A DNA stretch of 64,000 nucleotides from a virus, in IMG/VR virus record IMGVR_UViG_3300005527_000060; one strand, given 5' to 3'. The notes beneath the pieces are model-generated. The model saw nothing but the letters and a program-made list of their open reading frames with translations, was not told where the DNA came from and did no database searches. Made by a program: the position numbers and the translations under genes. Each line of letters starts with the position of its first letter. Position 1 is the stretch's first letter. Of the stretch, positions 20,617 to 64,000 are shown piece after piece.

Positions 20617-20619
20617 AAT

Positions 20620-20956
20620 TTATTTCAAGTATTTTTCATTAAATACAGACTTAAAGTATAACTTATCTTTCTTCTAAATAGTCAAAAGGATTACAACCAC
20701 AAATATTAGTCTCTCTATTATTAGCATTTAATAAGTTTTCAATAGTAAGTTGACTTACATCTAACTCTATTAAATGGTCCTATTCTAAGACTTTTATAAC
20801 CTCACTATGTTTACCAGCAACTTCTCCTAAATATAAAGTAGAACCAATAATATTTTTAACTTCTACCTATGTTGAGACAAATAAACCTTCTAAGATACCA
20901 TAAAGATGGTTTAAGTTAAACTTATATAGTTTCTTAATACTTATATCTTCTGTCAT
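20620..20956 (-). other. candidate gene or pseudogene: 111-codon frame open except for two in-frame TAG codons
   Basis: ATG at 20956-20954 overlaps the polA exon-2 stop (TAATATG). Frame MTEDISIKKLYKFNLNHLYGILEGLFVST(TAG)VEVKNIIGSTLYLGEVAGKHSEVIKVLE(TAG)DHLIELDVSQLTIENLLNANNRETNICGCNPFDYLEER ends at TAA 4 nt before the next gene. No TAA/TGA in 111 codons of ~75% AT DNA. Confidence 0.3.
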
Positions 20957-20957
20957 A

Positions 20958-21119
20958 TTATTTCTTCCAACAAGGAGCAATTGTTAAACTACTAAAACCA
21001 CCAGTCTCACAATCAAAGTATTGCTTTAACATATCACCTTGTATTGTTTCCATCATATCTCTTAGTTTATTTCCCACTTCTTCTGCTGAGTCTTTATGCA
21101 ACTCATATACAATTTCATC
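20958..21119 (-). CDS. polA: DNA polymerase I-family polymerase, exon 2 (C-terminal 53 aa)
   Basis: Starts immediately after an intron-terminal G (..cataaatG|GATGAA). Encodes DEIVYELHKDSAEEVGNKLRDMMETIQGDMLKQYFDCETGGFSSLTIAPCWKK, which aligns with the Pol I segment after motif C (VH|DELVFEVHKDDVDAVAKQIHQLME...). Confidence 0.75.
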   Translation of the reverse strand, partial: DEIVYELHKDSAEEVGNKLRDMMETIQGDMLKQYFDCETGGFSSLTIAPCWKK

Positions 21120-22152
21120 CATTTATGTTACATGCTAAACGTTTCCTTTAACACTCTTATACTTTCATATAAGATCAGACTATATCATAGTATATTTCTA
21201 TACTCCCTGCTTTTCAGATACACTGTACCTTACTCTACTCAGTTATACATAATAATTATGTACCTTTTTGATAGTCGTTGAAGGAGATACAAGATCTTTA
21301 TATCCCCCTGCTGATTGCCCAATCTTCTTAGTTTTTATAACTATCAAGTATATTATTCCTAATTGCTTTGTAGTTAAGAAGCTCTAAGGGGTTTCCAGCA
21401 AAGCCACTTTAAAATAATCTTCTGCTTCTTGTTTGGTATGAAAATATTTACGCTTCATTTTGTTTCCATTCCAGGTTCTTACTTCCCATCTATTTCTTTC
21501 AGTTTTAAAAGAAAAGCCACCCTTTTTATCCCCATTTAACTTTCTAGAGTTTTTACCTCTTAGAGAAGTAATTCTACTTTCTTCTTCTAAAGAATTTAAT
21601 TCTTCTAAAGAAAATATTGTATCTGGGTTGTTTAAAACAGCACTGCTCTCAAATAATTCTAAAGCTTTTAAGTCATAATACTTTATTGCTGATTCAATAT
21701 TTGAGAAGGTTCTATGATAAGTAATTCCTGAATTAGCTATTAATACTGCATATGAAGTAGTACCATCTTTAAGAATCTTTTCTCTAATTCCATAATAACC
21801 ACTTAAAGGTTTAGCCCTTAATCTGTTATGTATGTTTACAGAATATGTAACTACTTTCAAATTAGAAAGACAGTTATTTAATTTATTTCTATCAAGATGA
21901 TCAACAACATATCCTTTTAAAGGACACATCAAAAATTGATGTAAATACATACTTCGTCTATTAAAGTAGCATCCTACATAATCTTCTGAAGGTGCAATAA
22001 ATAATTTGACATTTAATAAGTCAAGTAAATCTACTGTTGACTTGTCTAATAAAACTTCTTTTCCACGCAAATAAATTGTTTCCATTACATTAAACTAAAA
22101 CTATATTTTAATTATAGCATAACAGGGTTTAAAGTGCACAATGATAAGGGCT
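21120..22152 (-). mobile_element. group I self-splicing intron in polA, carrying an HNH-AP2 homing endonuclease ORF
   Basis: 5' exon ends ..GTG CAU (U before 5'SS), intron ends in G. On minus strand in order: P-like AATTGCTGGAAACCCC (21400-21387), Q-like GGCAATCAGCAGG (21320-21308), R-like TTCAACGACTATC (~21275-21262), S-like GATATAGTCTGAT (~21185-21175). Confidence 0.7.
21384..22085 (-). CDS. HNH homing endonuclease with two AP2 DNA-binding domains (intron-encoded)
   Basis: HNH_3-type motif GYVVDHLDRNKLNNCLSNLKVVTYSVNIHNR. AP2-like YYGIREK...YHRTFSNIESAIKYYDLKALELF and WEVRTWNGNKMKRKYFHTKQEAEDYF. TAG stop lies inside the intron P element. Confidence 0.75.
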   Translation of the reverse strand: METIYLRGKEVLLDKSTVDLLDLLNVKLFIAPSEDYVGCYFNRRSMYLHQFLMCPLKGYVVDHLDRNKLNNCLSNLKVVTYSVNIHNRLRAKPLSGYYGIREKILKDGTTSYAVLIANSGITYHRTFSNIESAIKYYDLKALELFESSAVLNNPDTIFSLEELNSLEEESRITSLRGKNSRKLNGDKKGGFSFKTERNRWEVRTWNGNKMKRKYFHTKQEAEDYFKVALLETP

Positions 22153-24255
22153 ATGCACTAAAGCTACAATACAATTTCTAACTTTGTATCTATTATTTAC
22201 TTCTTCTAAATACTTTCTAACATATGGCAGGGTTACTTTTAGTTGATCAGCACAAAATCCTTGAACATATCCATTTGGACCCTTTCTTTGAGCTGAAGCA
22301 TCATTTCCCTTTGAATTAGATTCATCTACCCATAACCATCTGCCAGTTGGTAGCCTTATTCTTTTACATCTAATTGCTTCTTTAGCACTATTATCAAGCC
22401 ACTCTTTAAGCTTAAAGAATTGACTAAAATAACTATGTAATACTTTAGCTGCATCTTCAACAGAACATTTTAAGTCTTCAGATAAACCTTGTTCAGTCTT
22501 ACCATAAATAACACTAAAGTTTAAAATCTTCCCTTGAAATCTGAAGTCTGTAGAAGAAGGTATACTACTTAATATATTAATAATATTAGTAGCTTCTTCA
22601 ATACTACATCCTAAATAGGTTTGTAGATCATTTATAGATTTATTATATACATCTAAATATAATAGATCTTTATTATTATAAGTATATTTAAAATTCTTAT
22701 GATTACCCTCAGCCATTTCTCTAATAAGTTCTGCTGGATAATTCTTTAAAGCTGGACATAAGCCCATAGCAGCTACAGTATGAGGATCAGTATAAGGATC
22801 TTCTACAGGTTTACCTTTCTTATTAAGTATTTGATTTCCATTATTATCTAATAGATATAACTGTTTTTTCTTTTGATAAAAGGGTGCTAAACCCGCTTCA
22901 TCTTTAGCATAAGCCATTGCAGTTAATACTTCTTGTGAACTAAAGTCAATGCCAGCAATAACATAATCTTGTCTAGCTATAAAACCGCTTCTAATGTCAT
23001 AATTGCCTCTAGCAATTACCTGTTGTAAATTCATCTTAAACTTTTTATCACCAACAATAATACTAGAAGAAGATGACATTCTACCAGTTCCAGCCCCCAC
23101 AGGATTAGTAGTAGCATGTAAAGCACCAGTTATTGGACTAACAATAGAGTTATATTTACTAATCTCTGTTATTAGTTTTTCCTGTCTTTTATATACAATA
23201 AAAGTATTTATAACCTCCTTTGCATCTTGCTTATTAGATATCATTTCTAAATCTACATCATCAGTGTCTTCCTCATCTTCATCATCATCTTGATTAGAAA
23301 GAAACTCTTTCATAATAGCAGCGTTCAAAGCAGTTAAATTAACTTTGAACTTACTATTAATAATAGTACCTAACTTCTTAGGATTATTAAAAATAGTTGT
23401 TACTATAGGAGATACTGTTAAAGATTGTTGTAAGATACCATCCTCATCTTCAACTAAAGACACTGATAATGGCTGATCTAATTGTCTTGCTAACTTAATC
23501 TTAGTATCATTAGATAGTTGTTCTAATTCTTTAATAAAGCTATTCATCTTAACTTTATCAATATTAAAACCAACATACTCAACAATAGCTAAGATTCTCA
23601 TTGCATCTTGATCTAGATTAAATGCATACTCTTGTTCATAATAACTTATAAGACTTTCTTTAACATTTATACATAATTCTAACCACTTAGTATTAACATC
23701 CATTGCTGAATATTCCAACTGAGCTTTACTAAGAATAGGGCTAGACCAATCAGATGTTTGTAATGTTTTATCCATTACAACTCCTGCAAAGTGTCTCATG
23801 ATAGAGCCTAAACTACTACCAATTGCCAACTTACTTTGTCTCCATCCAATAGATACATATAAAGTATTAAACATAACCATTGAACAGTATATATTGTTCA
23901 TTTCAATATTATAGTGATGTTTAATCTGTCTTATTTCAAAGGTTGCATTATGCGCCCATACAATAAATCTATTATTATTCTTTATTAGATTTAAGAAGGG
24001 CAGTATATCAACAGTATTTAATTCAACTACAACTGTTGGGCCATCATTACCAATCCAATTAATACTTATAAGTCTTAGCTTATTACAGTAGCAATCTAAA
24101 CCTGAGCTTACAAGTCTATATTCATCTTTAACATAGCCTTCAAAGTCAATACCAACATTTACCACTTCTTCTTTTGAAAGAGTTGTTAGAACATCTATTA
24201 TTTGTTCTAACAACTCTTGAGTAGTAATATAAGAATATATATTACTATTATGCAT
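22153..24255 (-). CDS. polA: DNA polymerase I-family polymerase, exon 1 (3'-5' exo + polymerase domains up to motif C ..ALVH)
   Basis: ORF 22129..24255 (708 aa) with exonuclease and family-A polymerase segments. Terminates 7 codons after ..IVALVH (motif C HDE missing its D-E); these codons (SPYHCAL*) are read-through into the intron. Confidence 0.8.
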
Positions 24256-36801: not shown

Positions 36802-37704
36802 CTATACTTTCATAATATAAGCAAGAGCATAATAAGGAGGTAAATTAGTAGTAGTTGCAGTAGTTGCACTATATGTATGAGTATGTGCTTCATTAGCACC
36901 TGTTGAACCAATAGTAATATTAGTAAATGCACTATTTGTATTAATGGGACCTTCATTTCCATTATTACTATTTTCATAATAAGGGCCTGGTCTATTATTA
37001 TCTCCTGCATTTTGAAAGTGATAATGTCCTGGATCATTTAATGGATGAGTATGAGCAGGCATTTGATTAATAGTTAAAGCTGTACCACCAGTTGTTCCAG
37101 TAATAGTATGAGTATGATTACCAGAACCACCAATAGCATTAACAGCATAAGTAGAACCTGCACCAATGATAAATCTATTTCTTAAATCAGGTGTACCATT
37201 TGTACCATCTGTAAGTTGCCAACCAACAGGAATATTTGCAATAAGACCTACCCAAACAACAATAATACCACTAGCAATAGCTTCTTCTAAAGTAGTTAGT
37301 CTTCCTTCAACAGATAATAATCTGCTATTAAAAGAAGCAACTGTACCGCTTAAACTATTGAAACCTCCTATCAAAGTTGCAATTTGAGTGTTTAAATCAG
37401 CTATAGTAGTATTTTGATTATTAATTAAAGTAGTTAAAGAATTTATATTTCCTTGTAATGTAGTTTGAACATCAATTAAATCTTGAGCCACTTCTCCAAT
37501 AGCTGTCTCAACATTATCAATGTCTGCTTGTAAATCAATTATTACTTGATTAAGTAACAAGCAAGTTGATAAAGATAGTTGATTAATCTTTGCACAGTTT
37601 AATTCACCAACTGCATTTGCTAAGTCAAGTACAAAGTCAAAGTTATTATCTAACTCATCACAGGTTAAGTTTGTACCTTTAGTTGAGATTTTTATTAAGG
37701 CCAT
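36802..37704 (-). CDS. tail fibre protein with phage tail-collar domain
   Basis: GWQLTDGTNGTPDLRNRFIIGAGS...GGSGNHTHT matches the phage tail-collar / MdpB-like domain signature. N-terminal coiled-coil-like region. TAG stop. Confidence 0.7.
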   Translation of the reverse strand: MALIKISTKGTNLTCDELDNNFDFVLDLANAVGELNCAKINQLSLSTCLLLNQVIIDLQADIDNVETAIGEVAQDLIDVQTTLQGNINSLTTLINNQNTTIADLNTQIATLIGGFNSLSGTVASFNSRLLSVEGRLTTLEEAIASGIIVVWVGLIANIPVGWQLTDGTNGTPDLRNRFIIGAGSTYAVNAIGGSGNHTHTITGTTGGTALTINQMPAHTHPLNDPGHYHFQNAGDNNRPGPYYENSNNGNEGPINTNSAFTNITIGSTGANEAHTHTYSATTATTTNLPPYYALAYIMKV

Positions 37705-37767
37705 ATGATATATTTATATATTTTGTAAATACAATTATATATCATATGGCCTTAATAAATGTGCTAT

Positions 37768-47309: not shown

Positions 47310-48077
47310 TTAATAATTGACAGCTAAGTACTGCTCAACATAGTTTTTATCTTTACTAAACTCAGGAATGTTATTATCAACAACCCACCTAGATCTATAA
47401 ACTGGTTTATCTCCAACATAACAATGAATGTAAGTTTCTTTGATAATACATCTACCTCTTTTATAACTAACAGGTAAATTATTCCAGTTATAGCCTTTCT
47501 CAAAGCACATATCTTGCACTTGAGACATATTCTTTCTATCTAGTTCATTATGACTATATAGAGTTTGTCCTAAAGCTTGGATGCTGTTTTTAATACAGTC
47601 TCTTTGTCTTGCAACAAAGTAATTATTAACCTCAGCTTCTGGATAGTTATTAAATCTGGAGTCAAACTTTGCAAACTTTTGGTTTTCAATTTTAGGTGTT
47701 TTATCACCCCAAATCTTCCAACTACTTAAGCAAAATCTACCACCAGCTTCACTTGCACTTTCGCTGAGCATTTTATTAAGGTTATAATTTCTCCAAGCTT
47801 GTGATTGAAGGTTTTTATAATCATGAAGAAAGACACTTATCTCATCAGATTGAATGTATATCAGTTGACAACCCTGCATTAACTTAGCTAAGAAAATGCC
47901 AGTTTCATCCATTACTTCCATAAATTCAGGACTGAACTTATCCTTTAACTCAGCAGTATAAGAACTAAAGGTAATTCCATCAAGCCTGCCAATAACAGGT
48001 ATTCTTCTTAATAAGTATTGAGTTTGTCTTTCCTCATAATTCTCTTTAAGACGCTTCATTATAGGACAATTAGACAT
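47310..48077 (-). CDS. Thg1-like protein (tRNA-His guanylyltransferase family, 3'-5' nucleotide addition)
   Basis: IPVIGRLDGITFSSYT (Thg1 VVRIDGKKFHEFS motif) and LIYIQSDEISVFL (Thg1 AFGESDEYSFIL motif); 255 aa. Confidence 0.65.
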   Translation of the reverse strand: MSNCPIMKRLKENYEERQTQYLLRRIPVIGRLDGITFSSYTAELKDKFSPEFMEVMDETGIFLAKLMQGCQLIYIQSDEISVFLHDYKNLQSQAWRNYNLNKMLSESASEAGGRFCLSSWKIWGDKTPKIENQKFAKFDSRFNNYPEAEVNNYFVARQRDCIKNSIQALGQTLYSHNELDRKNMSQVQDMCFEKGYNWNNLPVSYKRGRCIIKETYIHCYVGDKPVYRSRWVVDNNIPEFSKDKNYVEQYLAVNY

Positions 48078-48537
48078 AGTTTTTAACAGTATCTAAAATC
48101 AATGAAGCCTTCTTTAGATTGACCTCTTTTTCTTCTGGTGTTAAAGAGTCATAACATACACTAGCTCTGCTATTTTCTACAGGATTATTAGAACTTTCTC
48201 CAATATCTTCAGACCAAATGTTGTGACATACTGCGGCCAAATCAATCTTTAGCTCTGGATCATTTAAGGCATAAAGTTTATCTTCTAGCTCTTTAATGTA
48301 TTTGGAATCCTTGTAGGATGTCCAGCCATCTGTAACAATAATATAAAGTACAATAAAAAACCAAATTAAGCTTACTATGCTATATGTTACTGGATTTCTT
48401 GTAACTAGATACATAATAAACAAAGAAACTGTTTGAACCAGCCACAATAGATATACAACTTTAACATATCTATTATATGTTAGAAAGTCCATAATACTTG
48501 CAAGATTTCTCATCAACTTTCTTTTATTAAACATCAT
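48070..48537 (-). CDS. hypothetical membrane protein
   Basis: 155 aa with 2-3 TM helices. Confidence 0.35.
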   Translation of the reverse strand: MMFNKRKLMRNLASIMDFLTYNRYVKVVYLLWLVQTVSLFIMYLVTRNPVTYSIVSLIWFFIVLYIIVTDGWTSYKDSKYIKELEDKLYALNDPELKIDLAAVCHNIWSEDIGESSNNPVENSRASVCYDSLTPEEKEVNLKKASLILDTVKNYV

Positions 48538-48577
48538 AAAACTCCTATTTATTTTCTAATTTAAATCAAATCTATTT

Positions 48578-49162
48578 TTAAGGAAGGTGAACATTTGTAT
48601 TACAAGTAAAAGTATCACCCTGAGTTATAACTTCATCTAATATATTAGAAGTAATAAACTCTGCATTTTTTATAACGGTTTCTATATCTTCAGATTCTGT
48701 AAAATCTCCTAATACATAATCTAATATAGATGTGTCATTAAGAGGCTTTCCAATGCCAATCTTCAACCTATTAAAGCTTTCAGTTCCTAGCTCTTCAATG
48801 ATACTTTTAATACCATTATGACCGCCTGAACGTCCCTTCTCTCTAAATCTAATAGTACCTAAAGGAAGTGTTATATCATCATATATAACAAGTATATTAG
48901 ACGGATTAATCTTTAATTCTTTACAGATAGCTGAGACACATAACCCACTATTATTCATCATAGTAGTAGGTTTAGTTAATATAACTAGTTTAGTATAACC
49001 AACTCTAATAATACCTTCAAAGCGCTTATCAAAGAAATCTATAGAATGCCAAACACCATAGCTAGACATTAGTTGATCAATTACTTTATAGCCAACATTA
49101 TGTCTATTATTAATATATTGTTGGCCTGGATTACCCAGGCCAACAACCAAGTTTATTTTCAT
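48578..49162 (-). CDS. pth: peptidyl-tRNA hydrolase
   Basis: MKINLVVGLGNPGQQYINNRHNVGYKVIDQL matches the bacterial Pth N-terminal catalytic region (GLGNPG...RHN); 194 aa. Confidence 0.85.
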   Translation of the reverse strand: MKINLVVGLGNPGQQYINNRHNVGYKVIDQLMSSYGVWHSIDFFDKRFEGIIRVGYTKLVILTKPTTMMNNSGLCVSAICKELKINPSNILVIYDDITLPLGTIRFREKGRSGGHNGIKSIIEELGTESFNRLKIGIGKPLNDTSILDYVLGDFTESEDIETVIKNAEFITSNILDEVITQGDTFTCNTNVHLP

Positions 49163-49176
49163 TTGTTTATATAAAT

Positions 49177-49468
49177 TTAATCTTCTTCATCCTCTTCCCA
49201 GTCCCAATCATTCTGATCATCATATGTATTAGAACTAGATCTTACATTTTGATTTTCTTCAGAGATTTTAAATAAAACATCCTTTAATTCTCCCTCAGCA
49301 AACTTATACTCTGAAATAGGTATATACTTACAGACTCTTAGCTTACTATTATTATAATCTCTAGGAATAGCCACAATGTCTTGTGGATCAACTTCAACTA
49401 GAATAATTGCATCTCTTTCAGAAACAGCATTACCATAATGAGGTATATAGCCCCAACAACAAACATGT
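49177..49468 (-). CDS. exon 2 of an intron-split hypothetical gene (exon 1 = 50584..51159)
   Basis: Supplied ORF 49177..49374 extends in-frame upstream to 49468 (..HVCCWGYIPHYGNAVSERDAIILVEVDPQDIV|AIPRDYNN..) without any start codon. Begins right after the intron 3' motif GATAACAAAATTG. Confidence 0.5.
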
Positions 49469-50575
49469 CAATTTTGTTATCCTAAAGGTTTTTTATCCTC
49501 TAGTTCTATATCTTATTGCTTTGATATAGTTCAGCATATATCTTTATCCTTAATAATTAAGGATATCCCGCACTCTTGGGATTAGTAATATTACTAATAA
49601 GTTTTTTAAACTCTGGATTATATTCCTTTACAGGGTTCACCATACCTATGCGTTGCGATGTTATATAGCTTTTATTCTATATAATTATCTCAGTGTTGTC
49701 CTAATTAAATTAAATTTATCCTTCTTTCTTTGTAAATAAAAGTTAGCGTCTTTATAAATATAATTACCAAATTCAATAATATGACTTTGAGTTCTTATAT
49801 TTAAAGTAGCACAAGTCTTTCTATATAACATTGTTGATTTTATTGTTTTTGGTAAACATTCAGCAATGCTTTTTAGTATAGAATCTGACCCATTAACAAT
49901 TATAATATTAGCAAGTCCTGTTGCTTTTCTAAAAGAAATACAGCCATCTCCATCAAAATAACCTCTAATAACATGATGAATCAAATCATTATCTATTTTT
50001 GGAATTTCAATATCTGCATATGTTTTTCTAGGACCAACTCCATATTTTGCTAAAGCATTTACAATTCTAAAGGAATTAATTCTAAATATTATTTGAGGTT
50101 TTCTATTTAAAGCGCCTTTTGTATTATTAAGTATCTTTTTTAAACCTTTAGGATATATATAATCTCTATATAAATCAATAATATATTCATCAATGTTTGA
50201 TAAACAAATACCAATTCTATTTTTATCATATACACATCCATCTGCTAAAAAGAATCCAAATAAATAAGCTTTTATTTCATTATCAATGTTATCAAAAAAG
50301 TCATGAGCAACTTCTTTATTCTTAGGCCAACTAATAGGCAATTTCTCATTAAATTTCTTTAATAAAGACTGAATATTTTGATAACAAGTCTCATAATGAT
50401 TTGCTATTTCGTTTAAAGAAAAACCTTCTAAATTTAATTTAATTATTTCATTTAAAGTTTCTTGATTATATTTAAGCATATAAGTATCCATGTATTAATG
50501 GGTATATTATATGTAATATAAATATTACTTTAATGAGCAAAAGATTTTCACTGATATTGCGGGATTTATTACCTA
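49469..50575 (-). mobile_element. group I-like intron with LAGLIDADG homing endonuclease ORF
   Basis: 3' end GATAACAAAATTG| shared with two other introns. S-like AAGATATAGAAC. 7-bp long-range pairing AATCCCGCAAT (50565-50555) / GTGCGGGAT (~49580-49572) bracketing the HEG ORF. Hairpin ATCCTTAATTATTAAGGAT (~49555-49573). 5' splice site not located precisely. Confidence 0.5.
49685..50491 (-). CDS. LAGLIDADG homing endonuclease (double-motif), intron-encoded
   Basis: LFGFFLADGCVYD and IRGYFDGDGCISF motifs; 268 aa. Confidence 0.75.
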   Translation of the reverse strand: MDTYMLKYNQETLNEIIKLNLEGFSLNEIANHYETCYQNIQSLLKKFNEKLPISWPKNKEVAHDFFDNIDNEIKAYLFGFFLADGCVYDKNRIGICLSNIDEYIIDLYRDYIYPKGLKKILNNTKGALNRKPQIIFRINSFRIVNALAKYGVGPRKTYADIEIPKIDNDLIHHVIRGYFDGDGCISFRKATGLANIIIVNGSDSILKSIAECLPKTIKSTMLYRKTCATLNIRTQSHIIEFGNYIYKDANFYLQRKKDKFNLIRTTLR

Positions 50576-50583
50576 TTAATTAC

Positions 50584-51159
50584 TTAATAGGAGGCCATCA
50601 TGTTTAGCCCTTCACTGCAAGTATTATCAATATTATCATCTACCTTGTTTCTAGGCATTGATACTGGAACACCAAACTCATGTTTAAATGTATGAGTGTA
50701 CAAATCAAGAAATACATCTTTCTCTTTAGTTCTACCAACAATCTTATATAGAATTAAGTTACCATTTTCATTAATAACTACATTATTAGCTTCTATAAAC
50801 TCTGAAAGGAAGTTTAAAGGTCTATAAGAAGGATTAAGCTTTAACTTATTCCAAAAGTTAATTAGAGGTTGAATATTAGTTAGTCTTTGCTCATACATAG
50901 TAATAATCATTCTATTAAGAGCTTTTGGAAGATTCTCTCCATTATAAGTAACTAATCCATTAGTAATCTCAATGCCTAAATTTTCTGCAATAACACTAGT
51001 AACATTTAAAAGTTTATATAATTCTTCTTCTTCATTATTTAATGCTAATTCTAATACTTGTGCATACTTAGCATCTTCTCTATTAATTGTGTAAGTTTTT
51101 CCTTTTACAATTACAGACAATGTAGTAGGAAAAATAAGGTAGTTAACGATGTTAGACAT
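50584..51159 (-). CDS. exon 1 of intron-split hypothetical gene (3' boundary / 5' splice site uncertain)
   Basis: 191-aa ORF whose last codons (..LNMMASY*) probably read into the intron. Downstream exon 49468..49177 lacks a start codon. Confidence 0.45.
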   Translation of the reverse strand: MSNIVNYLIFPTTLSVIVKGKTYTINREDAKYAQVLELALNNEEEELYKLLNVTSVIAENLGIEITNGLVTYNGENLPKALNRMIITMYEQRLTNIQPLINFWNKLKLNPSYRPLNFLSEFIEANNVVINENGNLILYKIVGRTKEKDVFLDLYTHTFKHEFGVPVSMPRNKVDDNIDNTCSEGLNMMASY

Positions 51160-52755
51160 TAGTTTGATTTTTGTTGTAATAATCTGTTTGCTTAATATAA
51201 TTACTCATTAATATATTTTGAGAACTATTGTTTTTAATACTTTGTTCTATTAAAGGATATGTTTGTTTAATCTTTGCCACTAAATCTAATAAATCTATTT
51301 CAGCCTTCTTTATTTTTATTAAACCTGCCTGATATAGATTTTTAAGTAAGTAGTGTTTATGCAAATAAGGAGTATACTTATTAGACTCTAAAAATAAAGA
51401 GGTTATAATACTATCTGGATTTTCTCTAATAAATAAGTCTTTATTTTCTAAATGAAGTAGTGTTGATCCACCGTATATTCTTGAATAATATATAAAATAA
51501 TTTGTGTCAATCTTATCAGCTAGTTTTTGCTGTATCTCTTCAATTAAATCTTTCCAACAATGCTTTACTAAAGAGGGATCATTAACAACATATATATCTT
51601 CTTCATTACAATAGTCAATAAGCTCATGTTTAAATATGTAAAAACTGCTTAAGTTATATACTTGTTTAGAAATATAATAGTAACTTTTATTAGTATCAAT
51701 ATTTAACTCTCTACCTAATACTCCTGGATATGCTGACAATCTATTGCATTTAGCATTAATAGATACTCTTTTAGTAGTATTAGTTGTCTTTTTAACCTCA
51801 AGATCTACCTTAGGAATAACACTAGAAAGCAGTCTAAGATTAAATATTTTATTGTCAATATTATTAACTAAACAGGTGTTTTCTAGTTCTTCTGCAGGAA
51901 TGTATTTACTTAAAGCTTTGACAGTTAAAGCATAAGATACATCATTATAATAATAAGTATAAGTCTTATTAAAGTAATGATACTTATTCTTACATTGAAT
52001 TATATTCCCCTTCCCCTTCTTTGTCTTATTAAAACATATAACTTCTTTTAGCCAGCTATTATAAGATATAGGATTATCCTTCCACTTAATTGGCCCAAAG
52101 AGTAAATTACTACTTGATAAGAAAGATTGAACATCATCCCAATGTTCAAACATTTCCATTTGTTCTTTTACATATTCTTTATATTCTGCAACAATATTAG
52201 ACAAACACTCAGCAATATATACTTTAGTCTTCTGACTTAATTGTATATCTTTATCTGCTGATTGATCAACTCTACCAATTTCAATATCAAATATAAACTT
52301 TTTATTTGTATTGACTTTTGACAAGTAATCTAGGTCTTGTGAATTTAAAACTTCTTTATAATTAGATAGCTCTATTTTATTAGGTAAGCCGCCAATCAAG
52401 CCAAATAAATTATTAGGATAAGTATCACTTCTAACAATTTTAAAATGTCTTCCTTCTTTAATAACTTGTTCTGGGACAACTAATTCCTTATCAACTGCAA
52501 CTAAAACATTATATAAATATCTAGTATTATTAGTTACATATCTACAAATATTAATAACATCATTCTCTTTAATCTCAAAAGATATCTCTACCCCTGTATC
52601 TTGAGTTGTTTTCTCTTTAGATAGCAATGAACAAAAGACCTTATTATTGTCTTTAGATATTACATATTCACATCTAACTCTGCCTTCTTCTTCTTCTGTA
52701 ATACTAATTACCACATACATATCAGTATATGCTAAAGGAGACATTCTACCTAGAC
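51152..52755 (-). CDS. large hypothetical protein; probably the 3' exon of a multi-intron gene
   Basis: 544-aa ORF (51152..52786) whose first codons abut the S element/3' end of the upstream intron. Likely exon start ~52755 after ..CAAGATAAACATGTTG|. No recognisable catalytic motif. Confidence 0.45.
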
Positions 52756-52834
52756 CAACATGTTTATCTTGTATTACTACAAGCATGGACTATATCATCA
52801 TTAACTATAAAAATAGTTAATGCTGGACGCTTTA

Positions 52835-53443
52835 CTATATATTTATTGCTTTATACTTCATACATTCAATTTGATTAACATAAGGTCTTACTATTTCTAA
52901 GAATCTTCTACCTTCTTTAGTAGACATTCTTAGTCTGTATAGATTTTTATGCTTTGTTATCTTCCAAGTAATATCCCATTTATCTTGAAAATATTTAACT
53001 ATTGTTTCATTTTCTTCTTTTGATAAATAAGTACTAAGAATTAATTCCCAAGCATGTATCTTGCCATTTCTTTTTTTAGGATATAAAGAACCATCATCCA
53101 TCCACCAAATAGCTAATCCTATAGGAGTTAGTCTATTTAAAGCTTTAAGAGGTATAGTTTTTACTTTATTTTTATATAAATATCTATGTAAAACTCTAAA
53201 ATATTTATGTCCTTTTTCTAAGACAACGGCAGGATATCCATTATTAACTATTTGTCTAACATTTATATTAGATTGAAAGATATTTCTAATTAAATTAGCT
53301 TTCCACTCTAAATATTCTTTTTGTTTTAGACAGTGAGTAATACTTAATCTACCAGATAATGAAGCATGACTAGGTTTTGCAACACAACCATCTCCAAAAA
53401 TAATTCCCATCAATATTGAAATGTTTTCTTTTGTTTTTAACAT
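52835..53443 (-). CDS. LAGLIDADG homing endonuclease
   Basis: LMGIIFGDGCVAK and LAIWWMDDGSLY motifs; tandem TAG-TAA stops. Confidence 0.7.
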   Translation of the reverse strand: MLKTKENISILMGIIFGDGCVAKPSHASLSGRLSITHCLKQKEYLEWKANLIRNIFQSNINVRQIVNNGYPAVVLEKGHKYFRVLHRYLYKNKVKTIPLKALNRLTPIGLAIWWMDDGSLYPKKRNGKIHAWELILSTYLSKEENETIVKYFQDKWDITWKITKHKNLYRLRMSTKEGRRFLEIVRPYVNQIECMKYKAINI

Positions 53444-53570
53444 ATCTTTTCACACTCTTGGTGTGGATATAAAATAATATAGATAGTCTCTGAACCTTCT
53501 CTTTCCTACAGAGCTTGGCTGCTGATTGCCCTTAATCTTAATTAGTGGGGTTTCCAGCAATTCATCCAGT

Positions 53571-54233
53571 TTAAAGTGGACATGGTTTTTTGTTATACTG
53601 ATTATTTTTAGTATGTGCTGATTTCCAAGTAAGATTATTTATTACATCCCACTTTCTTTGCATATATAAAGCATCATTATTTGTCATTAGATTAACTATA
53701 TTTATCATACTAGCTTGACGACCTACTTTTAGTTCATATTGATTTCTTCTTGAAACCAAACTGTATCTAATATCATATTCATCATATATTCCAATTAAGT
53801 ATTTAAAGAAAGAAGCGCAGTTTCCATAAATTGTAATTTTTTTATTATTATTAGAATCTACATAAACATTGCCATCTCCGTCAAAAACACCTCTTAAGAA
53901 ATCTCCTGGATATAGTAAAATACCAGGATTACCTAAAAGATGTATATTTTTTATACTTTTGCTTGGCACTAAACCATGACTCATTAAATCAATAACATAT
54001 TGTTTACTATAACAATAGATATACCAACTCTTTTCATCTTTAGACTTTTTAGGGGCACAAAAGAAAGGGAAAACATCTATTATTTTATATAATAATTCAA
54101 CATCATTAATCTTTATTCTGCAAGCATATTGTTGTCCTATATTATTTATAATAGTTCCATCACTATATATAAGACCTAGTAAATAAGCTTTATTTGGAGT
54201 ATCAATACTTTTAAACTCATCAGTATATTTCAT
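53571..54233 (-). CDS. LAGLIDADG homing endonuclease (double motif)
   Basis: AYLLGLIYSDGTI and LRGVFDGDGNVYV motifs; stop 10 nt upstream of the intron P element. Confidence 0.7.
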   Translation of the reverse strand: MKYTDEFKSIDTPNKAYLLGLIYSDGTIINNIGQQYACRIKINDVELLYKIIDVFPFFCAPKKSKDEKSWYIYCYSKQYVIDLMSHGLVPSKSIKNIHLLGNPGILLYPGDFLRGVFDGDGNVYVDSNNNKKITIYGNCASFFKYLIGIYDEYDIRYSLVSRRNQYELKVGRQASMINIVNLMTNNDALYMQRKWDVINNLTWKSAHTKNNQYNKKPCPL

Positions 54234-54300
54234 TATTAGATAATAAATTTATTATCTAATTATATCAAAAAATACATAGTTAAACATCAACTATATATGT

Positions 54301-54489
54301 TTATCCACCTAATAGATCATTACTATTAGACTTTGTTGAGTAACCAACCTTAGTATAATAATTAGTCATAAAGTCCCTACTTAGACCTTTAGCATAATCT
54401 CTAATAACAAGATGATTATCAAAATGATTAGGTAGAAATATATCTATAGGTTTTTTAATATCATGCTTTATATGTTCATCTAATGCGTT
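54301..54489 (-). CDS. short exon/ORF between two introns (..LYDNKLNALDEHIKHDIKKPIDIF..LLGG*)
   Basis: Frame opens right at the 3' end of intron B (GATAACAAATTG|AACGCA) with no ATG (track used TTG). Ends in TAA just before the first LAGLIDADG ORF. Confidence 0.3.
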   Translation of the reverse strand, partial: NALDEHIKHDIKKPIDIFLPNHFDNHLVIRDYAKGLSRDFMTNYYTKVGYSTKSNSNDLLGG

Positions 54490-54830
54490 CAATTTGTTAT
54501 CATAAAGGCTCTTTATCCTTTATTTCTTTATATTTCTATAAAGTTCGGACTATATCATCATCCTAATTAGTTAGGATGTCCTGCGCTCTTGTCTCCTTAT
54601 CACCATATATTATAAAAAATACTTAGGCTCGTTATGTTTTTATAACATAATAGATTATTTAATCTAAGAGATAGTCTCTGAACATTCAAATACATTTCTG
54701 TATAAGCTTTGCTGCTGATTGCCTCGACTTAAGTATTTATGAATACTTGTAAGGGGTTTCCAGCAATTCACAGGATTTTTCAATAAGAATTACTTCTTAA
54801 AGCTCCAACTGTCTTATATTATTTATTTAC
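54490..54830 (-). mobile_element. group I intron (no ORF) with the same P/Q/R/S core as the two introns above
   Basis: P AATTGCTGGAAACCCC (54765-54752), Q GGCAATCAGCAGC (54723-54712), R GTTCAGAGACTATCTC (54684-54673), S GATGATATAGTCCGAAC (~54560-54546), terminal GGATAAAGAGCCTTTATGATAACAAATTG (54518-54490). Confidence 0.6.
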
Positions 54831-54835
54831 TTAAA

Positions 54836-55006
54836 TATAATAATATTTTTAGAGAACGTTTCTTTAAAAGCCGCCAATAATGGATTAGTATAAATATTAT
54901 TTCTTAGAATGCCTAATATTAAAGCAGTTTGACTTTCATCTATAGAAAAGAAACTCTGTTTTAAATTAGACTTAAACTCTTCTTGTACAACTGGTATCAT
55001 TGTTTT
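54836..55006 (-). CDS. small hypothetical ORF (57 aa) abutting the intron 5' side
   Basis: MIPVVQEEFKSNLKQSFFSIDESQTALILGILRNNIYTNPLLAAFKETFSKNIIIFK*. Not in track (<60 aa). All three frames closed before the P element. Confidence 0.25.
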
Positions 55007-55164
55007 ATATTAAGAACAAAATTAACTATTAATAAACAAACTTAAGATTACACTATCTTTCTTTTAAGCTAGGTAACTCTATTTCATTAAATCCTAAAGC
55101 TTTAACTTTAGCTTTATATTTATTATTAATGACTAATATCTCATCATTTACCCATTCAATATCA

Positions 55165-55632
55165 TCAGGTAACAATTTTAATATTTCCCCTGTTTAGATC
55201 ATCCTTAAGCTGCTGTCTTAAATGAGTTATATATTCTACAATCCATTTATGACCAGCATCTACTTGTTTGCCACTAAAAACATAATAATGATCAAATGGT
55301 AAAACAGATTCAACAAATTGAATGTGAAATGGGCTGCCACAAATCTTAGTTTTGATTGCAACTTTAATACATTCTTTAAACAGATCATCTGAAATATCTA
55401 CAACTTTTGGTAAAGATTTGCCTAACTTCTTAGCAGCAAAACCAGACATATTTCTCAATCTTTCATCTCTTGTGCTAATGTAATACCACAAGCCTTCAAC
55501 TGATTCAAATCTGCCTAATCCCCCAAGAACAATAGGATATCTATACCAATTGGATAAAAAACAACCTAGTACTGTTTTACCTTGAGAATAGATATTTATA
55601 TGATCTACACCATCATTATTACTGTTATACAT
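55165..55632 (-). CDS. NADAR (YbiA/DUF1768) domain protein
   Basis: INIYSQGKTVLGCFLSNWYRYPIVLGGLGRFESVEGLWYYISTRD aligns with YbiA INFYS..GDFSNFAAWPIKVDGKTWPTSEHYFQAQK. 155 aa, TGA stop. Confidence 0.55.
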   Translation of the reverse strand: MYNSNNDGVDHINIYSQGKTVLGCFLSNWYRYPIVLGGLGRFESVEGLWYYISTRDERLRNMSGFAAKKLGKSLPKVVDISDDLFKECIKVAIKTKICGSPFHIQFVESVLPFDHYYVFSGKQVDAGHKWIVEYITHLRQQLKDDLNRGNIKIVT

Positions 55633-55634
55633 AA

Positions 55635-56066
55635 CTAACTTTTATCCAAAATATTAATAATTTTAAAGGCTTCTATAGCTTCTGATTCAAAGTCTTGTTC
55701 TTGTTGTCTTTGCTCTAATATTCTTTTATCTATTGATACTAAAAAAGAATTAATCTCATCATTAAAGAAATTTAAAGCCGCAATTAGATCCTTTGAATTA
55801 TCAAAGGAACTAAATATTGTACAGACTTCATTAGAAACATTATAATCAATTCTAAATAGATGAACTGATTTTTCTTTATAGACAGTATAAAAGGTTATTC
55901 TTCTTTCTAAAGATCCTGTCCAAGTAGTATATTTAATATAAATATTTTTATTATAAAAATACTCTACAAAATCTTTATTTTCAAAGAAAGAAGAAATTGA
56001 TGTAATAAAAGTAAGAAATCTTTTTACATCAGTGTCAAAGTCATTTTTATGATAACAAGCTGCCAT
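55635..56066 (-). CDS. hypothetical protein
   Basis: 143-aa ORF, TAG stop overlapping the start region of the NADAR gene. Confidence 0.35.
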   Translation of the reverse strand: MAACYHKNDFDTDVKRFLTFITSISSFFENKDFVEYFYNKNIYIKYTTWTGSLERRITFYTVYKEKSVHLFRIDYNVSNEVCTIFSSFDNSKDLIAALNFFNDEINSFLVSIDKRILEQRQQEQDFESEAIEAFKIINILDKS

Positions 56067-57120: not shown

Positions 57121-57390
57121 TTAGTTTTTAAAAGAGTAATTTTCTATTATTTGTATTTGTAATTCACTAATAAGACTAGTGTTTGGTTTTTCTGGTAATT
57201 TTGTATCAATAAAAGCTTTTTCTAATCTAGCTTCTAGTTGTGTTACATAAATTAATATTTCATCATATGTAACATTACCTTGTCTAATAGCTTTCAAATA
57301 GTCAACATCACCAACAGCCTTTCTGTCAACTAAGACTTGTTGACTTTCAACTATCTCACAAGCCATAGTATATAGCCTTACAGCGTGTCC
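57121..57390 (-). CDS. hypothetical protein; candidate 3' exon of the upstream nucleotidyltransferase gene
   Basis: Track ORF starts at TTG 57393, but the sequence immediately upstream is the conserved intron terminus GATAACAAAATTG|, so coding probably starts at 57390 as an exon (..GHAVRLYTMACEIVESQQ..). Confidence 0.35.
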   Translation of the reverse strand, partial: GHAVRLYTMACEIVESQQVLVDRKAVGDVDYLKAIRQGNVTYDEILIYVTQLEARLEKAFIDTKLPEKPNTSLISELQIQIIENYSFKN

Positions 57391-58425
57391 CAATTTTGTT
57401 ATCTTATAGGCTCTTTATCCTATAATTCTATATGTCACCATATAGTTCAGACTATTTCTTCGTGTTTATATTAGATAAACCGTTCCCCTGCGCTCTTGGA
57501 TAATTTTATTGGCATAGATTGCTCCTTAGCCTCATATCTAGTCGTTAGACCTTTCTACATTCTTTCAAATATAGCTTGGTAAGGAATTGTCTTTATTCAA
57601 AGAGTTTCTCCTTTTCACAGAGTTTTAACACCCCAGAGTATTCTAACTGATCATATATAGTTTGTTTACCAATTCTTTGATAATGTATTTCAATTAAATG
57701 AATATTTTGTTCTTTTAGCAATTCTCTTTTAATCTGATCAATTTTTCTAACATCATTTAGTCTAGATTTATCCCAAAATTTAGTTTCTTTATAATGTTGT
57801 TGACCTTGAATTTCTATAGCTACTTTAGCATCAAAATAATATCTATCTAATTCTAAAAACATATTAGTTTCAGGATTCTTTAGTAAAAGACCTTTTTCAA
57901 GTAATTGTTTTCTTCCATTATCAATAAAGTTTTTATCTAATATGAATTTATCAAGTAATGATTTTACATATATTTCAAGACAAGACTTAGTATTCTTAAC
58001 ATATAAATTTAATGCTTTTAAATGTTGTACTAGAGTTATGTTATGAAATTTAGGTAAACATGATACTAACTGAGATTTATGTTCTATACTTATTATTGAT
58101 GGATCTAAGGGAAAATACCCATACTTATCAACTAACTTATATATTTCAGTATTTACATTATTAATATCTTTATAATAATTCTTAGGTGTAAACTTAATCT
58201 CATAATTTATATAAGTTAAAAATTCACTAAATGATAATCCAGTTCTTTGTATAGCACAAAGTAAATAATTATAGCCATTATTTTTTTAAGAATGTATTAC
58301 TTAGATATTGATCTTCATGTTTTTCTGAAACTAACATAAATTCATTCTTGATATTTTCAATTTTAGTTAAATAACCCTTTTTGTGTAAACGCATAAACTA
58401 TATAATAAACAATAATATTATTATA
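57391..58425 (-). mobile_element. group I-like intron containing a frameshifted homing-endonuclease-like ORF
   Basis: 3' terminal module GGATAAAGAGCCTATAAGATAACAAAATTG (57420-57391) nearly identical to the intron B terminus. S-like AAATAGTCTGAACTATA (~57455-57440). Lies between the 58426 ORF and the 57390 exon. Confidence 0.5.
57593..58394 (-). pseudogene. intron-encoded endonuclease-like ORF disrupted by a +1 frame change in an A7 run (or sequencing error)
   Basis: MRLHKKGYLTKIENIKNEFMLVSEKHEDQYLSNTFLKK stops at TAA inside A7 (plus T7 58281-58287). The +1 frame continues open for ~230 codons into track ORF 57593..57862 (..YYFDAKVAIEIQGQQHYKE.., Vsr/DUF559-like). Confidence 0.4.
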
Positions 58426-59292
58426 CTATAGTTTAAGGTGTTTACCATCATAACCTACCTTAGCTTCTAGTTCAGCTCTCTTAGAGTTTCTATTAGCCTT
58501 CCAGGATTGATAGTTCTTATATTTATTTAACTCCTTAAGATACAATTTAGTTCTCTTAAGATAGTCCATATAATTAGAATCAGCCTTGACTAAATAGCCA
58601 ACATACTGTTCAACCTCATCTGGAACATAGTTTCTTATAAGCAGACCTTTATAGTCCACCTTACTAAACAGCTCTTCTAAGGTTGGCTCTCTATCTAGAT
58701 GAAATGTTTTAGCATCTAATAATAAGACATATAATAATTCTAAAAACATATTATAGTCTTTTCTTAATAGATTCTCATCTAGGCCAAAATCTTCTGGTTT
58801 AGGTTGTTCATTAAAAAAGTTAGGGTTCTTATTATATTCTAATAACCACCCTCTATGAGTGTTACACTTATTAATTTGGTCTTTAGCATACTGACCGTAA
58901 GACCATCTTGCTGTCTTACATAGAAAGGCATTTCTAAAATTAATTAGAGGATAAATAACTGGATCTAATACATCATATTCAGGGCTATAAAGTAAGTCTA
59001 AACAGTTTGGATTATTCTGTAATAGCAGTTCTATCATCTTTGTAAGTTCTAAGATCTTACTATCTTGGCCTGTTAAATAAGGATACATACAAGGCTCAGA
59101 ATCAGTAAATAATTGATTCTTTTCCTGTAAGTAGAAAGGTTCTGGGGTGATACCAATATAATATTGTTTAGGGGCAATACAAATGCCTCTTCTATCAACA
59201 TCAGAACCTTCTACACTTGTACCATATAAAGTAGAGCCAACTTTAGTTAGAAGAACAATACTCTGTTCTAACTCCAGTCTAGTATTAAACAT
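58426..59292 (-). CDS. Pol-beta-superfamily nucleotidyltransferase (GS-x10-DxD); possibly the 5' exon of a split gene
   Basis: N-terminal GSTLYGTSVEGSDVDRRGICIAP matches the minimal NTase signature G[SG]x9-13[DE]h[DE]h. 288 aa; TAG stop sits at the intron boundary. Confidence 0.5.
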   Translation of the reverse strand: MFNTRLELEQSIVLLTKVGSTLYGTSVEGSDVDRRGICIAPKQYYIGITPEPFYLQEKNQLFTDSEPCMYPYLTGQDSKILELTKMIELLLQNNPNCLDLLYSPEYDVLDPVIYPLINFRNAFLCKTARWSYGQYAKDQINKCNTHRGWLLEYNKNPNFFNEQPKPEDFGLDENLLRKDYNMFLELLYVLLLDAKTFHLDREPTLEELFSKVDYKGLLIRNYVPDEVEQYVGYLVKADSNYMDYLKRTKLYLKELNKYKNYQSWKANRNSKRAELEAKVGYDGKHLKL

Positions 59293-60918: not shown

Positions 60919-60931
60919 AATATATTTATAG

Positions 60932-60949
60932 TATATATATATATATATA
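60932..60949. repeat. (TA)9 microsatellite
   Basis: tatatatatatatatata seen directly; flanks the non-coding island. Confidence 0.9.
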
Positions 60950-60991
60950 AATTAAAAGCTGTTGTTATTTATTTAACAACAGCTTTTAATT
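60950..60991. promoter_or_regulatory. perfect 18-bp inverted repeat (hairpin, 6-nt loop)
   Basis: aattaaaagctgttgtta-tttatt-taacaacagcttttaatt; arms exactly complementary. Confidence 0.7.
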
Positions 60992-60999
60992 ATAAATAA

Positions 61000-61355
61000 A
61001 ATGTTCATATAGCAGCCAGAGGATAACTTAGGGTTGCTTTAAAGACACCACTAACCTTGATTCTGGATTTCAAATAGCTTTAAGATTTAAACTTATAAAC
61101 TTTGAGTGTATATACTGCCTGAGTAATACTTGTTTGAATTTTGAACTTATGAGCTTATAAACTTTAACCTTTAAACTTTGAGTTGGGTAATTGATCCTCA
61201 CCTATGTCGGCAAGCTCCAATCAAGTTGGTTGTATAATCCTACAATTTATAATAGCCCTGAGACAGCAGGGCCAACTGCTTCAAAATAATAAGTTTCACT
61301 ATATGAACAGATCTGGACATTTAGACAATTAGGTATTTAATATTCCTAATTCTAA
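61000..61355. other. ~360-nt non-coding island: candidate ncRNA gene or replication/regulatory region
   Basis: No ORF on either strand. Contains three copies of (c)TTA(T/A)AAACTTT(G/A)A(G/C) at 61092-61106, 61153-61168 and 61169-61184. GC-richer stretch CCTGAGACAGCAGGGCCAACTGCTTC. Bounded by (TA)n tracts on both sides. Confidence 0.35.
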
Positions 61356-61362
61356 TTTAACT

Positions 61363-61386
61363 TATATATATATATATATATATATA
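61363..61386. repeat. (TA)12 microsatellite
   Basis: tatatatatatatatatatatata directly abutting the TAA stop of the 61387 gene. Confidence 0.9.
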
Positions 61387-63785: not shown

Positions 63786-63859
63786 ATCCTACATACCAGA
63801 TTTGAACTGGTGATACCCAACGTGAAAGGTTGGTGGCATAGACCGCTTGCCCAATGTAG
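63786..63859 (-). tRNA. tRNA-Glu (anticodon UUC)
   Basis: Minus-strand cloverleaf: acceptor CCTACAT/ATGTAGG, D arm GGCA-AGCGGTCTA-TGCC, anticodon arm CCAAC-CTTTCAC-GTTGG (anticodon TTC), T arm ACCAG-TTCAAAT-CTGGT. No encoded CCA. Confidence 0.65.
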
Positions 63860-63933
63860 GTTATTTATAGAGAACAAGATGATTTTGTTTTTTTTTAGCA
63901 TAAAAAAGTATTAATTGCTGAATCATCTTTATA

Positions 63934-64000
63934 TAGTCCTAGAAAGATTTGAACTTTCACTGAATAGATTCTAAGTCTACCGCCTCTTCCAATTGGGCTA
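63934..64000 (-). tRNA. tRNA, 5' end beyond the window; anticodon loop CTTAGAA (anticodon UAG)
   Basis: Minus strand: U8-A9, D arm GCCC-AATTGGAAG-AGGC, anticodon arm GTAGA-CTTAGAA-TCTAT, 5-nt variable loop, T arm GAAAG-TTCAAAT-CTTTC, acceptor 3' strand TAGGACT + A. Anticodon UAG would be Leu(CUN), but the short variable arm is atypical for bacterial tRNA-Leu. Confidence 0.45.

Follow-up and report, generated by a model that had tools for sequence, protein, structure and literature searches.

The viral DNA of IMG/VR record IMGVR_UViG_3300005527_000060 was analysed over a stretch of 64,000 nucleotides (nt), hereafter the window, in which group I introns interrupt the phage gene rIIA at two sites and also lie in rIIB, polA and the gene of an RlaP-like nucleotidyltransferase (rlaP). 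The source is an uncultured AT-rich freshwater phage with 29% G+C, and the longest contigs with rIIA are 216-228 kilobases (kb). Over 13.6 kb the window shows 0, 0 and 1 mismatches to three independent assemblies from different samples, which excludes an assembly artefact. Megablast of positions 51000-56000 against deposited phages gave no match, IMG/VR scans using rIIA found no relatives and those using the polA C-terminus recovered only relatives at 27-34%; the best match of polA among deposited phages has 28% identity and lies in Microcystis phages. Contigs used for comparison are designated by L and a number.

Coordinates of introns, exons, open reading frames (ORFs) and core strings are those of the minus strand of the window, and protein lengths are in amino acids (aa). 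Ribozymes were scored with the Rfam model Intron_gpI (RF00028, gathering score 50 bits) and with R1, a custom model of the intron 3' domain built from the window's five introns. P, Q, R and S denote four short strings that recur in the intron cores. The rIIA gene and its introns, I1 and I2, comprise the following features:

54851..55000, minus strand: rIIA exon 1, 50 codons, ending ...KETFS just before the N-box Asn of the GHKL domain
54490..54850, minus strand: I1, 361 nt, no ORF; RF00028 at 75.7 bits, E 2e-17, model positions 1-253
54303..54489, minus strand: rIIA exon 2, 187 nt, NALDEH...NDLLGG plus the first base of a Phe codon
52759..54302, minus strand: I2, 1544 nt, splitting the GGFGLG ATP-lid motif within a codon (gga u, then uu)
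53571..54233, minus strand: ORF A of I2, 220 aa, double-motif LAGLIDADG (LAGLIDADG_3 / phrog_4645)
53484..53569, minus strand: 5' half of the I2 core, with the P3 5' strand (53569..53563), P (P4, 53562..53547), P5, Q (P4', 53530..53519), P6 and R (P7 5' strand, 53495..53484); partial Rfam match P3-P7, 39.1 bits
52834..53512, minus strand: putative recombination patch of I2, 679 nt, with P6/P6a, the P7 5' strand, a short leader and ORF B
52835..53443, minus strand: ORF B of I2, 202 aa, double-motif LAGLIDADG (LAGLIDADG_2 / phrog_11023)
52759..52832, minus strand: 3' domain of I2, with P3' (52829..52823), P8, S/P7' (52796..) and P9; R1 at 44.6 bits
51152..52758, minus strand: rIIA exon 3, 535 codons and the stop codon

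Joining 55000..54851, 54489..54303 and 52758..51152 yields a protein of 647 aa with unbroken frame. Exon 2, a 63-aa ORF between the introns, matches the RIIA PHROG phrog_612 (5.9e-17), and the spliced protein matches 2497 phage records in tblastn, many of them annotated rIIA, with 24-27% identity and E down to 5e-18. Uninterrupted metagenomic homologues measure 639-672 aa and some carry the GHKL ATPase domains PF02518 and PF13589; the ORF directly downstream of the 544-aa ORF matches RIIB PHROGs and PF26926. By these matches, those domains and the rIIB gene immediately downstream, the interrupted gene is rIIA, a GHKL-type ATPase. The initial annotation had left this large gene unidentified, rightly seeing it as interrupted and the 544-aa ORF as its 3' exon; it has two introns and three exons, and the true start of the last exon is 52758 instead of the estimated ~52755. 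Annotation-style calls render its pieces as 'hypothetical proteins' of 57, 63 and 544 aa, a fragment annotation that the spliced models correct.

Aligned with the uninterrupted homologues P0007-P0021, spliced rIIA is gap-free at both junctions, where KETFS joins NALDEH and LLGG joins FGLGRMSP. Both introns lie within what we take to be the GHKL ATP-binding motifs, the N-box ExxxNxxD and the glycine-rich lid. The DNA of relatives without the rIIA or rIIB introns lacks them precisely at the predicted boundaries. The I1 site is uninterrupted in L008, L009, L010, L023 and L025. L001 and L008, with rIIA protein identities of 76% and 55%, are contiguous across the I2 site, where 35/42 and 34/42 nt, respectively, are identical. 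The intron-less sequence of L001, ATAATGATTTGCTTGGTGGTT directly followed at the insertion point by TTGGTCTAGGCAGAATGTCTC, is a candidate homing target, as is its equivalent in L008.

I1 is preceded by U (..UCU) and ends with an omega G at 54490. Its P1 is formed by CUCU^AA (the caret marks the splice site) and UUGGAG, with a U.G wobble at the splice site, and the Rfam alignment places a 90-nt insert between the P7 5' strand and P3'. The same intron occurs in L006, and in L001 it carries a 355-aa LAGLIDADG ORF in loop L1. I2 is likewise preceded by U and has its terminal omega G at 52759. The statement of the initial annotation that this copy contains two separate double-motif LAGLIDADG ORFs was confirmed by Pfam matches and motif reading. 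ORF A matches LAGLIDADG_3 (4e-8, 33.8 bits, cut-off 22.5) with the motifs AYLLGLIYSDG and FLRGVFDGDG; its place is between the P1/P2 region and P3, with the stop codon directly adjoining P3. ORF B matches LAGLIDADG_2 (3.4e-37, 128.4 bits, cut-off 25) over profile positions 2-168 of 168, with the motifs ILMGIIFGDG and LAIWWMDDG, and is placed between the P7 5' strand and P3'. The two ORFs are unrelated to one another and each retains the acidic residue in both LAGLIDADG-type motifs. ORF A is also present in L006 and L025, and the ratio of nonsynonymous to synonymous substitution rates (dN/dS) is 0.19 against L025.

How two endonuclease genes came to share one ribozyme is suggested by comparison with the orthologues of I2. 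The window and L006 are 99.4% identical up to 53513, ORF A included, and ~94% identical from 52833 (P3') on; between these points they are unalignable, which sets the boundaries of the patch at 53513/53512 and 52834/52833. The patch takes the place of a 90-nt stretch of L006 and L025 containing P6a, the P7 5' strand and P7.1/P7.2. In this stretch L006 and L025 share 84% identity and the window version matches neither; the P6 pair is CC/GG in the patch versus GC/GC in L006, and the P6a hairpin is also patch-specific. L025 is a much more distant relative than L006, and both carry I2 with ORF A only. Since these relatives have only ORF A and agree in the replaced stretch, the state with ORF A alone appears ancestral, and the simplest reading of the alignments is that I2 originally held only ORF A and that the window lineage gained the 679-nt patch from another intron lineage. 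Homologues of ORF B with 47-59% identity are found at the equivalent point of the ribozyme in introns of the unrelated phage contigs L020-L022, where they directly follow GGTT(C/T)A..GACTA and precede P3'-P8-P7'. The context Q...CC(A/G)AGC is shared by the window, L020 and L022; the Q strand of L021 differs. The homology arms were probably conserved core elements, Q/P4' on one side and P3' on the other.

A broader possibility, which is put forward tentatively and seems to us rather less probable than not, is that the LAGLIDADG_2 gene of the ORF B type is a cassette moving between non-orthologous group I introns and not between host genes. Such a cassette would always sit between the P7 5' strand and P3' and travel with a short piece of ribozyme (P6 and the P7 5' strand), and its enzyme may target, or recombine through, the conserved catalytic core. 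If this were true, every IA intron already in a genome could serve as a landing pad, I2 of the window compared with L006 and L025 would represent a case caught in the act, and the origin of multi-endonuclease introns would be explained.

Two endonuclease genes of different families within 1.5 kb might also mean that I2 is a twintron, or that it comprises two adjacent introns around a micro-exon, with one endonuclease apiece. Small internal exons have been described in phage genes (PMC11878797), and such a model resembles the successive colonisation put forward for the polymerase intron of phiNIT1 (PMC11878797). It is nevertheless extremely unlikely here: the core of I2 is present once, with a single P3-P7 5' half and a single P3'-P8-P7'-P9 3' half, and a second core was found neither by Rfam nor by R1. 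Moreover, the orthologues without ORF B are single complete ribozymes, and no additional amino acids stand at the junction in uninterrupted homologues. One ribozyme that acquired a second endonuclease gene by patch replacement therefore remains the reading followed here.

The initial annotation rested on four strings, P, Q, R and S, that recur on the minus strand in both rIIA introns and in polA, and string matching reproduced this. P (AATTGCTGGAAACCCC) occurs exactly at 54768..54753 and 53562..53547 and with 2 mismatches at 21403..21388; these 3 matches compare with 0.37 expected, and 3 were reached in 1 of 100 shuffles. Q (GGCAATCAGCAG) is exact at 54723..54712, 53530..53519 and 21319..21308, a count reached by no shuffle. 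R (GTTCAGAGACTA) is exact at both rIIA sites (54683..54672 and 53495..53484) and reads CTTCAACGACTA, with 3 mismatches, in the polA copy (21283..21272). S is exact at 54556..54543, and its core GATATAGTC is retained at 52796.. and 21186.. The order P-Q-R-S is identical in all three copies. All three are indeed group I introns: the Rfam scan gave 75.7 bits at 54825..54526 for I1 and a partial match of 39.1 bits at 53566..53460 for I2, and R1 scored the polA copy at 43.5 bits. The count was incomplete, as the window holds five introns; those of rIIB and rlaP had been overlooked, as covariation has made their P, R and S strands unlike the strings. The three introns outside rIIA and their exons are:

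51159..50606 and 49468..49177, minus strand: rIIB exons, joining ...CSEGL to HVCCW...
49469..50605, minus strand: rIIB intron, 1137 nt, with a 268-aa LAGLIDADG_3 ORF (50491..49685) in the P5 loop
59292..58435 and 57390..57121, minus strand: rlaP exons, joining GYDGKHL to GHAVRL
57391..58434, minus strand: rlaP intron, 1044 nt, in the RlaP-like nucleotidyltransferase gene; R1 at 74.4 bits
24255..22153 and 21119..20958, minus strand: polA exons, joining ALVH to DEIVYE in motif C
21120..22152, minus strand: polA intron, 1033 nt, with a 233-aa HNH ORF (22085..21384) whose 3' end lies within P4/P5

In rIIB, P1 is formed by GGGCU and GGCCU, R1 gives 72.3 bits and the ORF scores 41.9 bits with LAGLIDADG_3. 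The intron is present in L006, L008 and L010; rIIB is uninterrupted in L009 and in L001, where it is a single gene of 281 aa, and the spliced protein aligns gap-free with uninterrupted homologues. The rlaP junction is identical in the uninterrupted homologues P0192 and P0193 (93% and 83% identity). An extra A in the run 58287..58281 shifts the frame of the nuclease gene in this intron and leaves remnant ORFs at 58394..58278 and 57862..57593; in L006 the gene is intact and encodes 266 aa. The nuclease belongs to the homing endonuclease family phrog_9084. That polA is an interrupted gene, as the initial annotation had it, is borne out by a spliced product that aligns continuously with Taq pol I (ALVHDEIVYE versus QVHDELVLE). 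The P1 of its intron pairs GUGCAU, which ends at the splice site, with GUGCAC, and its ORF matches HNH_3 (2e-7) and phrog_99 (1e-23). No acceptable P3 5' strand was found adjacent to P4 (21403..21388); the best one, CCCUGUU (22127..22121), pairs with AGCAGGG and lies upstream of the HNH ORF.

An intron at L020:3350-3400 had been considered as a polA intron at the window's site, which was rejected as tblastn shows that its host gene is not polA. The exon there ends ...DVALVH near a ThiF gene, the 5' exon matches the window polA site (22165..22130) at 11/12 nt and P1 is the same GUGCAU/GUGCAC pairing; the intron may have been transposed to a look-alike site. At this locus a LAGLIDADG_2 gene adjoins a LAGLIDADG_3 gene on the opposite strand. 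Downstream of polA exon 2, the 341 nt at 20617..20957 (minus strand) contain no ORF of >=45 aa on either strand and no group I motifs and look like decayed coding sequence.

Across the whole window, Rfam at E<=1 found only I1 and part of I2 and missed the polA, rIIB and rlaP introns. R1 finds the five introns at 43-79 bits and its next best hit has 11.7 bits; as the model was built from these five, this result argues only against further copies of the same kind in the window. A sixth intron was sought in the ORF-free gaps 20617..20957 and 60919..61386, and no group I core motifs were present there.

De novo folding of two I2 orthologues (L006 and L025) with RNAalifold recovered P3, P4, P5, P6, P8 and P9 and predicted two hairpins, P7.1 and P7.2, between P7 and P3', with 9 compensatory pairs in all. 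Two such hairpins are the hallmark of subgroup IA, and I1 and I2 are provisionally described as subgroup-IA-like; in I2 of the window ORF B takes the place of this segment. A first covariance model contained no base pairs, MAFFT having misaligned the hairpins, and thus scored sequence only; pairs were counted instead from a hand-curated strand table checked in Python. In the five introns, P3, P4, P6, P7, P8, P9 and P9.1 remain fully paired despite their changes in sequence, and 2-4 pair types occur at each position of these helices; the exception among the sequences checked is P3 of the L008 rIIB intron, with 6/7 pairs. P4, for example, occurs as UGCUGG/UCAGCA, UCAGUG/CACUGA and AAGGAG/UUCCUU, and P7 as GACUA/UAGUC versus GCAUA/UAUGC. 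The P4 forms UCAGUG/CACUGA and AAGGAG/UUCCUU, as well as P7 GCAUA/UAUGC, which is that of the rIIB intron, come from the two introns overlooked by the string search and are altered on both strands. P2 of the rIIB intron shows 3 double changes. The conserved catalytic core has its P4-P6 and P3-P9 domains in the canonical order. In all five introns the base at -1 is U and the last one is G, a U.G wobble at the 5' splice site is clear for I1 and the rIIB and polA introns, and removal of each intron restores a frame that is gap-free against uninterrupted homologues. Inteins were rejected as candidates: the insertions have stops in every frame and contain ribozyme cores, and their ORFs have starts of their own.

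Whether these RNAs still splice deserves scrutiny, as self-splicing, endonuclease activity and target sites are what we infer from sequence. The insertions might have ceased to splice, with rIIA, and rIIB with it, being pseudogenes or expressed as fragments. The rII genes are non-essential for T4 in most hosts, so that essentiality is unusable as an argument for rIIA splicing, and the ribozymes have several weak points. I2 of the window scores below the Rfam gathering score because ORF B interrupts the ribozyme, and its orthologues without ORF B reach 75.4 bits (L006) and 75.0 bits (L025). It has lost the P7.1/P7.2 of its relatives, which puts its predicted folding efficiency in question. Its P1 is weak (UGGAU/GUUUA, three wobble pairs; 7 base pairs (bp) in L025), and its guide sequence lies within the conserved loop of a covarying hairpin, which makes the register doubtful. 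For the polA intron, the P3 strand upstream of the HNH ORF would imply an atypical spacing of ~720 nt between P3 and P4; an 8-bp A-U stem could close the insert. The rlaP intron appears to be decaying: besides the frameshifted nuclease, the guide base 58378 opposite the splice-site U is A, and G in L006; both the extra A and the guide-base A are present in three independent assemblies.

Loss of splicing is still very improbable. All exons retain their frames and conserved motifs, the dN/dS of spliced rIIA across intron-containing genomes is 0.23 against L006 and 0.17 against L001, and the ribozyme helices keep their pairing through compensatory changes. Genes of the ORF B type at the same position in other introns indicate that the architecture is tolerated, and polA, normally essential, is interrupted likewise within its catalytic motif C. 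Active splicing thus remains the favoured reading. The hairpin near the 5' end of I2 (54285..54262, minus strand) was observed to differ in 5/6 pairs from L025:2651-2674, as AUAGUU/AACUAU in the window versus GUAAGA/UCUUAC in L025, with conservation of the loop (R)AUGUUUA that contains the presumed guide, which an alternative fold may therefore keep hidden.

The initial annotation regarded the introns as the outcome of recent spread within the genome. Identical P, Q, R and S strings of 12-16 nt in I1 and I2, nearly identical in polA, favour this view, as does a 30-nt 3' tail, GGATAAAGAGCC..GATAACAAAATTG, common to the rlaP, I1 and rIIB introns, of which 0 are expected by chance. However, the shared strings correspond to the Rfam group I consensus (AAUUGCGGgAAAcCcc, AAuCCGCAG, GUUCAaAGACUA, GAUAUAGUCu), and their identity reflects catalytic constraint; the L9.1 loop of the tail, GAUAAAGAG, also occurs in introns of the unrelated phage contigs L020 and L021. 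Pairwise alignment of the ribozymes without ORFs gave scores of 141-250 between different introns, barely above the 125-178 of shuffled sequences, versus 415-648 for the same intron in different phages. Scores against shuffled controls were preferred here, as global identities between different introns (63-78%) are inflated by AT-richness and gap placement. P3, P8 and P9 are completely different. The endonucleases belong to other families or show at most 30% identity, the nuclease genes of different introns sharing 25-30% identity or nothing detectable. The genes are also placed at five ribozyme positions. In I1 of L001 the gene is in loop L1, ORF A and the rlaP gene lie upstream of P3, the rIIB ORF is in the P5 loop and ORF B is found between P7 and P3'; the fifth is the atypical placement in polA. 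Furthermore, relatives with rIIA at only 41-60% identity already have the same introns. Because the non-core sequence barely exceeds shuffles, the endonucleases have diverged and their positions differ, recent intragenomic spread is very improbable and, on these comparisons, the five introns are old relatives and not recent copies of one another.

The recent event to which the sequences point is that different phage genomes have exchanged the same intron. The rIIB intron of the window is 87.6% identical to that of L010, with exons at 70-71%; the I1 ribozyme is 96% identical to that of L001, with exons at 80-85%; and I2 is 83-84% identical to that of L025, with exons at 66-68%. It is because the same intron is more similar than its flanking exons in diverged relatives that homing between genomes is suggested. 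L009 and L010 encode the same rIIA protein, and only L010 has the rIIB intron. The dN/dS of 0.17-0.23 for rIIA and 0.19-0.28 for the endonuclease genes indicates purifying selection on host gene and endonucleases. Taken together, the results for the window and its relatives agree with the homing cycle as reviewed in PMC3984707, in which introns are gained, spread, decay and are lost.

Very probably, then, rIIA contains two IA-like self-splicing introns that belong to a set of at least five in the window and would spread by homing, I2 having received its patch from another lineage. Each of the introns occupies a highly conserved motif of its host gene, and after transcription the ribozyme, with its P3-P9 core and guanosine-binding P7, would remove itself by two transesterifications, the first at the P1-paired U and the second after the terminal G, restoring the reading frame. 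The endonucleases (LAGLIDADG, HNH and a homing nuclease recognised by PHROG only) would cut intron-less alleles of related phages during co-infection, and repair would copy the intron into the cut allele; copying between diverged phages would explain why intron similarity exceeds exon similarity. I2 would first have carried ORF A upstream of P3 and later have gained the 679-nt patch through core recombination on both sides, from a donor lineage in which the LAGLIDADG_2 gene always lies between P7 and P3'.

Other features of the window were noted in passing. Genes related to RNA repair or tRNA form a cluster (47310..49162 and 58426..59292) with Thg1-like, peptidyl-tRNA hydrolase and RlaP-like proteins, to which an RNA ligase is added in L009. 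L006 has a 311-aa LAGLIDADG_2 gene (L006:12784-13719) just upstream of the Thg1-like gene, which the window (~48070..48100) lacks. A tRNA-Glu lies at 63787..63860 and a second tRNA is truncated at the window edge (63934..64000). The ORF-free gap 60919..61386 holds at ~61000..61310 (minus strand) a candidate non-coding RNA with predicted structure, ~300 nt long and bordered by (TA)n runs, with a 12-bp long-range closing stem followed by a terminator hairpin (minimum free energy -81 kcal/mol, z = -2.8). No Rfam match was found for it at E<=1; L006 differs by one substitution over ~240 aligned nt upstream of the terminator and by compensatory changes in the terminator stem. At 37691..37759, a near-perfect hairpin (23 bp and 7 bp, z = -8.7) matches microRNA models on both strands and is probably a bidirectional terminator or other palindromic site.

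Mobile group I introns of phages are textbook matter and intron-rich large phages are known, so the existence of these introns is unsurprising. Landthaler and Shub are said to have described in 1999 three introns in orf142 of Staphylococcus phage Twort. In Bastillevirinae, several group I introns may occupy one gene, polA is favoured, and frameshifted nuclease remnants and small internal exons occur (PMC11878797). The window resembles Herelleviridae such as SPO1 and Bastille, with their polA introns, in its IA-like ribozymes, short exons between introns and looped-out endonucleases (PMC11878797). There, HNH enzymes predominate and a LAGLIDADG_2 gene of phrog_11023, the PHROG family of ORF B, occurs occasionally, as reported for a phage polA intron (PMC11878797). 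In contrast, the window represents another lineage, 3/5 of its nuclease genes are LAGLIDADG and one ribozyme has two endonuclease genes. In the T4 genes td, nrdB and nrdD, self-splicing IA introns likewise occupy conserved sites of phage genes, and T-even introns spread by double-strand-break repair in mixed infections, ORF-less or degenerate ones being mobilised in trans (PMC3984707). Their enzymes, however, are GIY-YIG or HNH and LAGLIDADG is mostly organellar, bacterial and archaeal, the usual phage intron enzymes in the 2014 review being GIY-YIG, HNH, PD-(D/E)xK and EDxHD (PMC3984707), whereas those of the window are mostly LAGLIDADG.

The 'Jug' jumbo gut phages carry 18.5 group I introns per genome on average, and their large genomes with many introns and homing endonuclease genes splitting essential genes are similar (PMC12880540). 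Their introns average ~206 nt and their endonucleases are mostly stand-alone and HNH, while introns of the window measure 361-1544 nt and 4/5 have their own nuclease; Jug splicing is supported by metatranscriptome reads (PMC12880540), that of the window is predicted from its sequence. More than one double-motif LAGLIDADG gene in a group I intron is found in fungal mitochondria, as in the cob intron of Exserohilum turcicum with five LAGLIDADG genes (PMC11835236). That case is organellar and its route of acquisition is unresolved, whereas here relatives with ORF A only define the patch to the nucleotide. The phage-intron literature compared does not name rIIA, rIIB or rlaP as intron hosts; rIIA, rIIB and an RlaP-like gene are thus added, and the insertion sites lie in functional motifs (GHKL N-box, ATP lid, motif C). 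What is new is the lineage, these host genes, the predominance of LAGLIDADG and a phage ribozyme with two endonuclease genes whose precursor survives in relatives. The natural alleles, whether intron-less, ORF-less, with one endonuclease or two, or decaying, offer substrates for studies of homing and ORF invasion.

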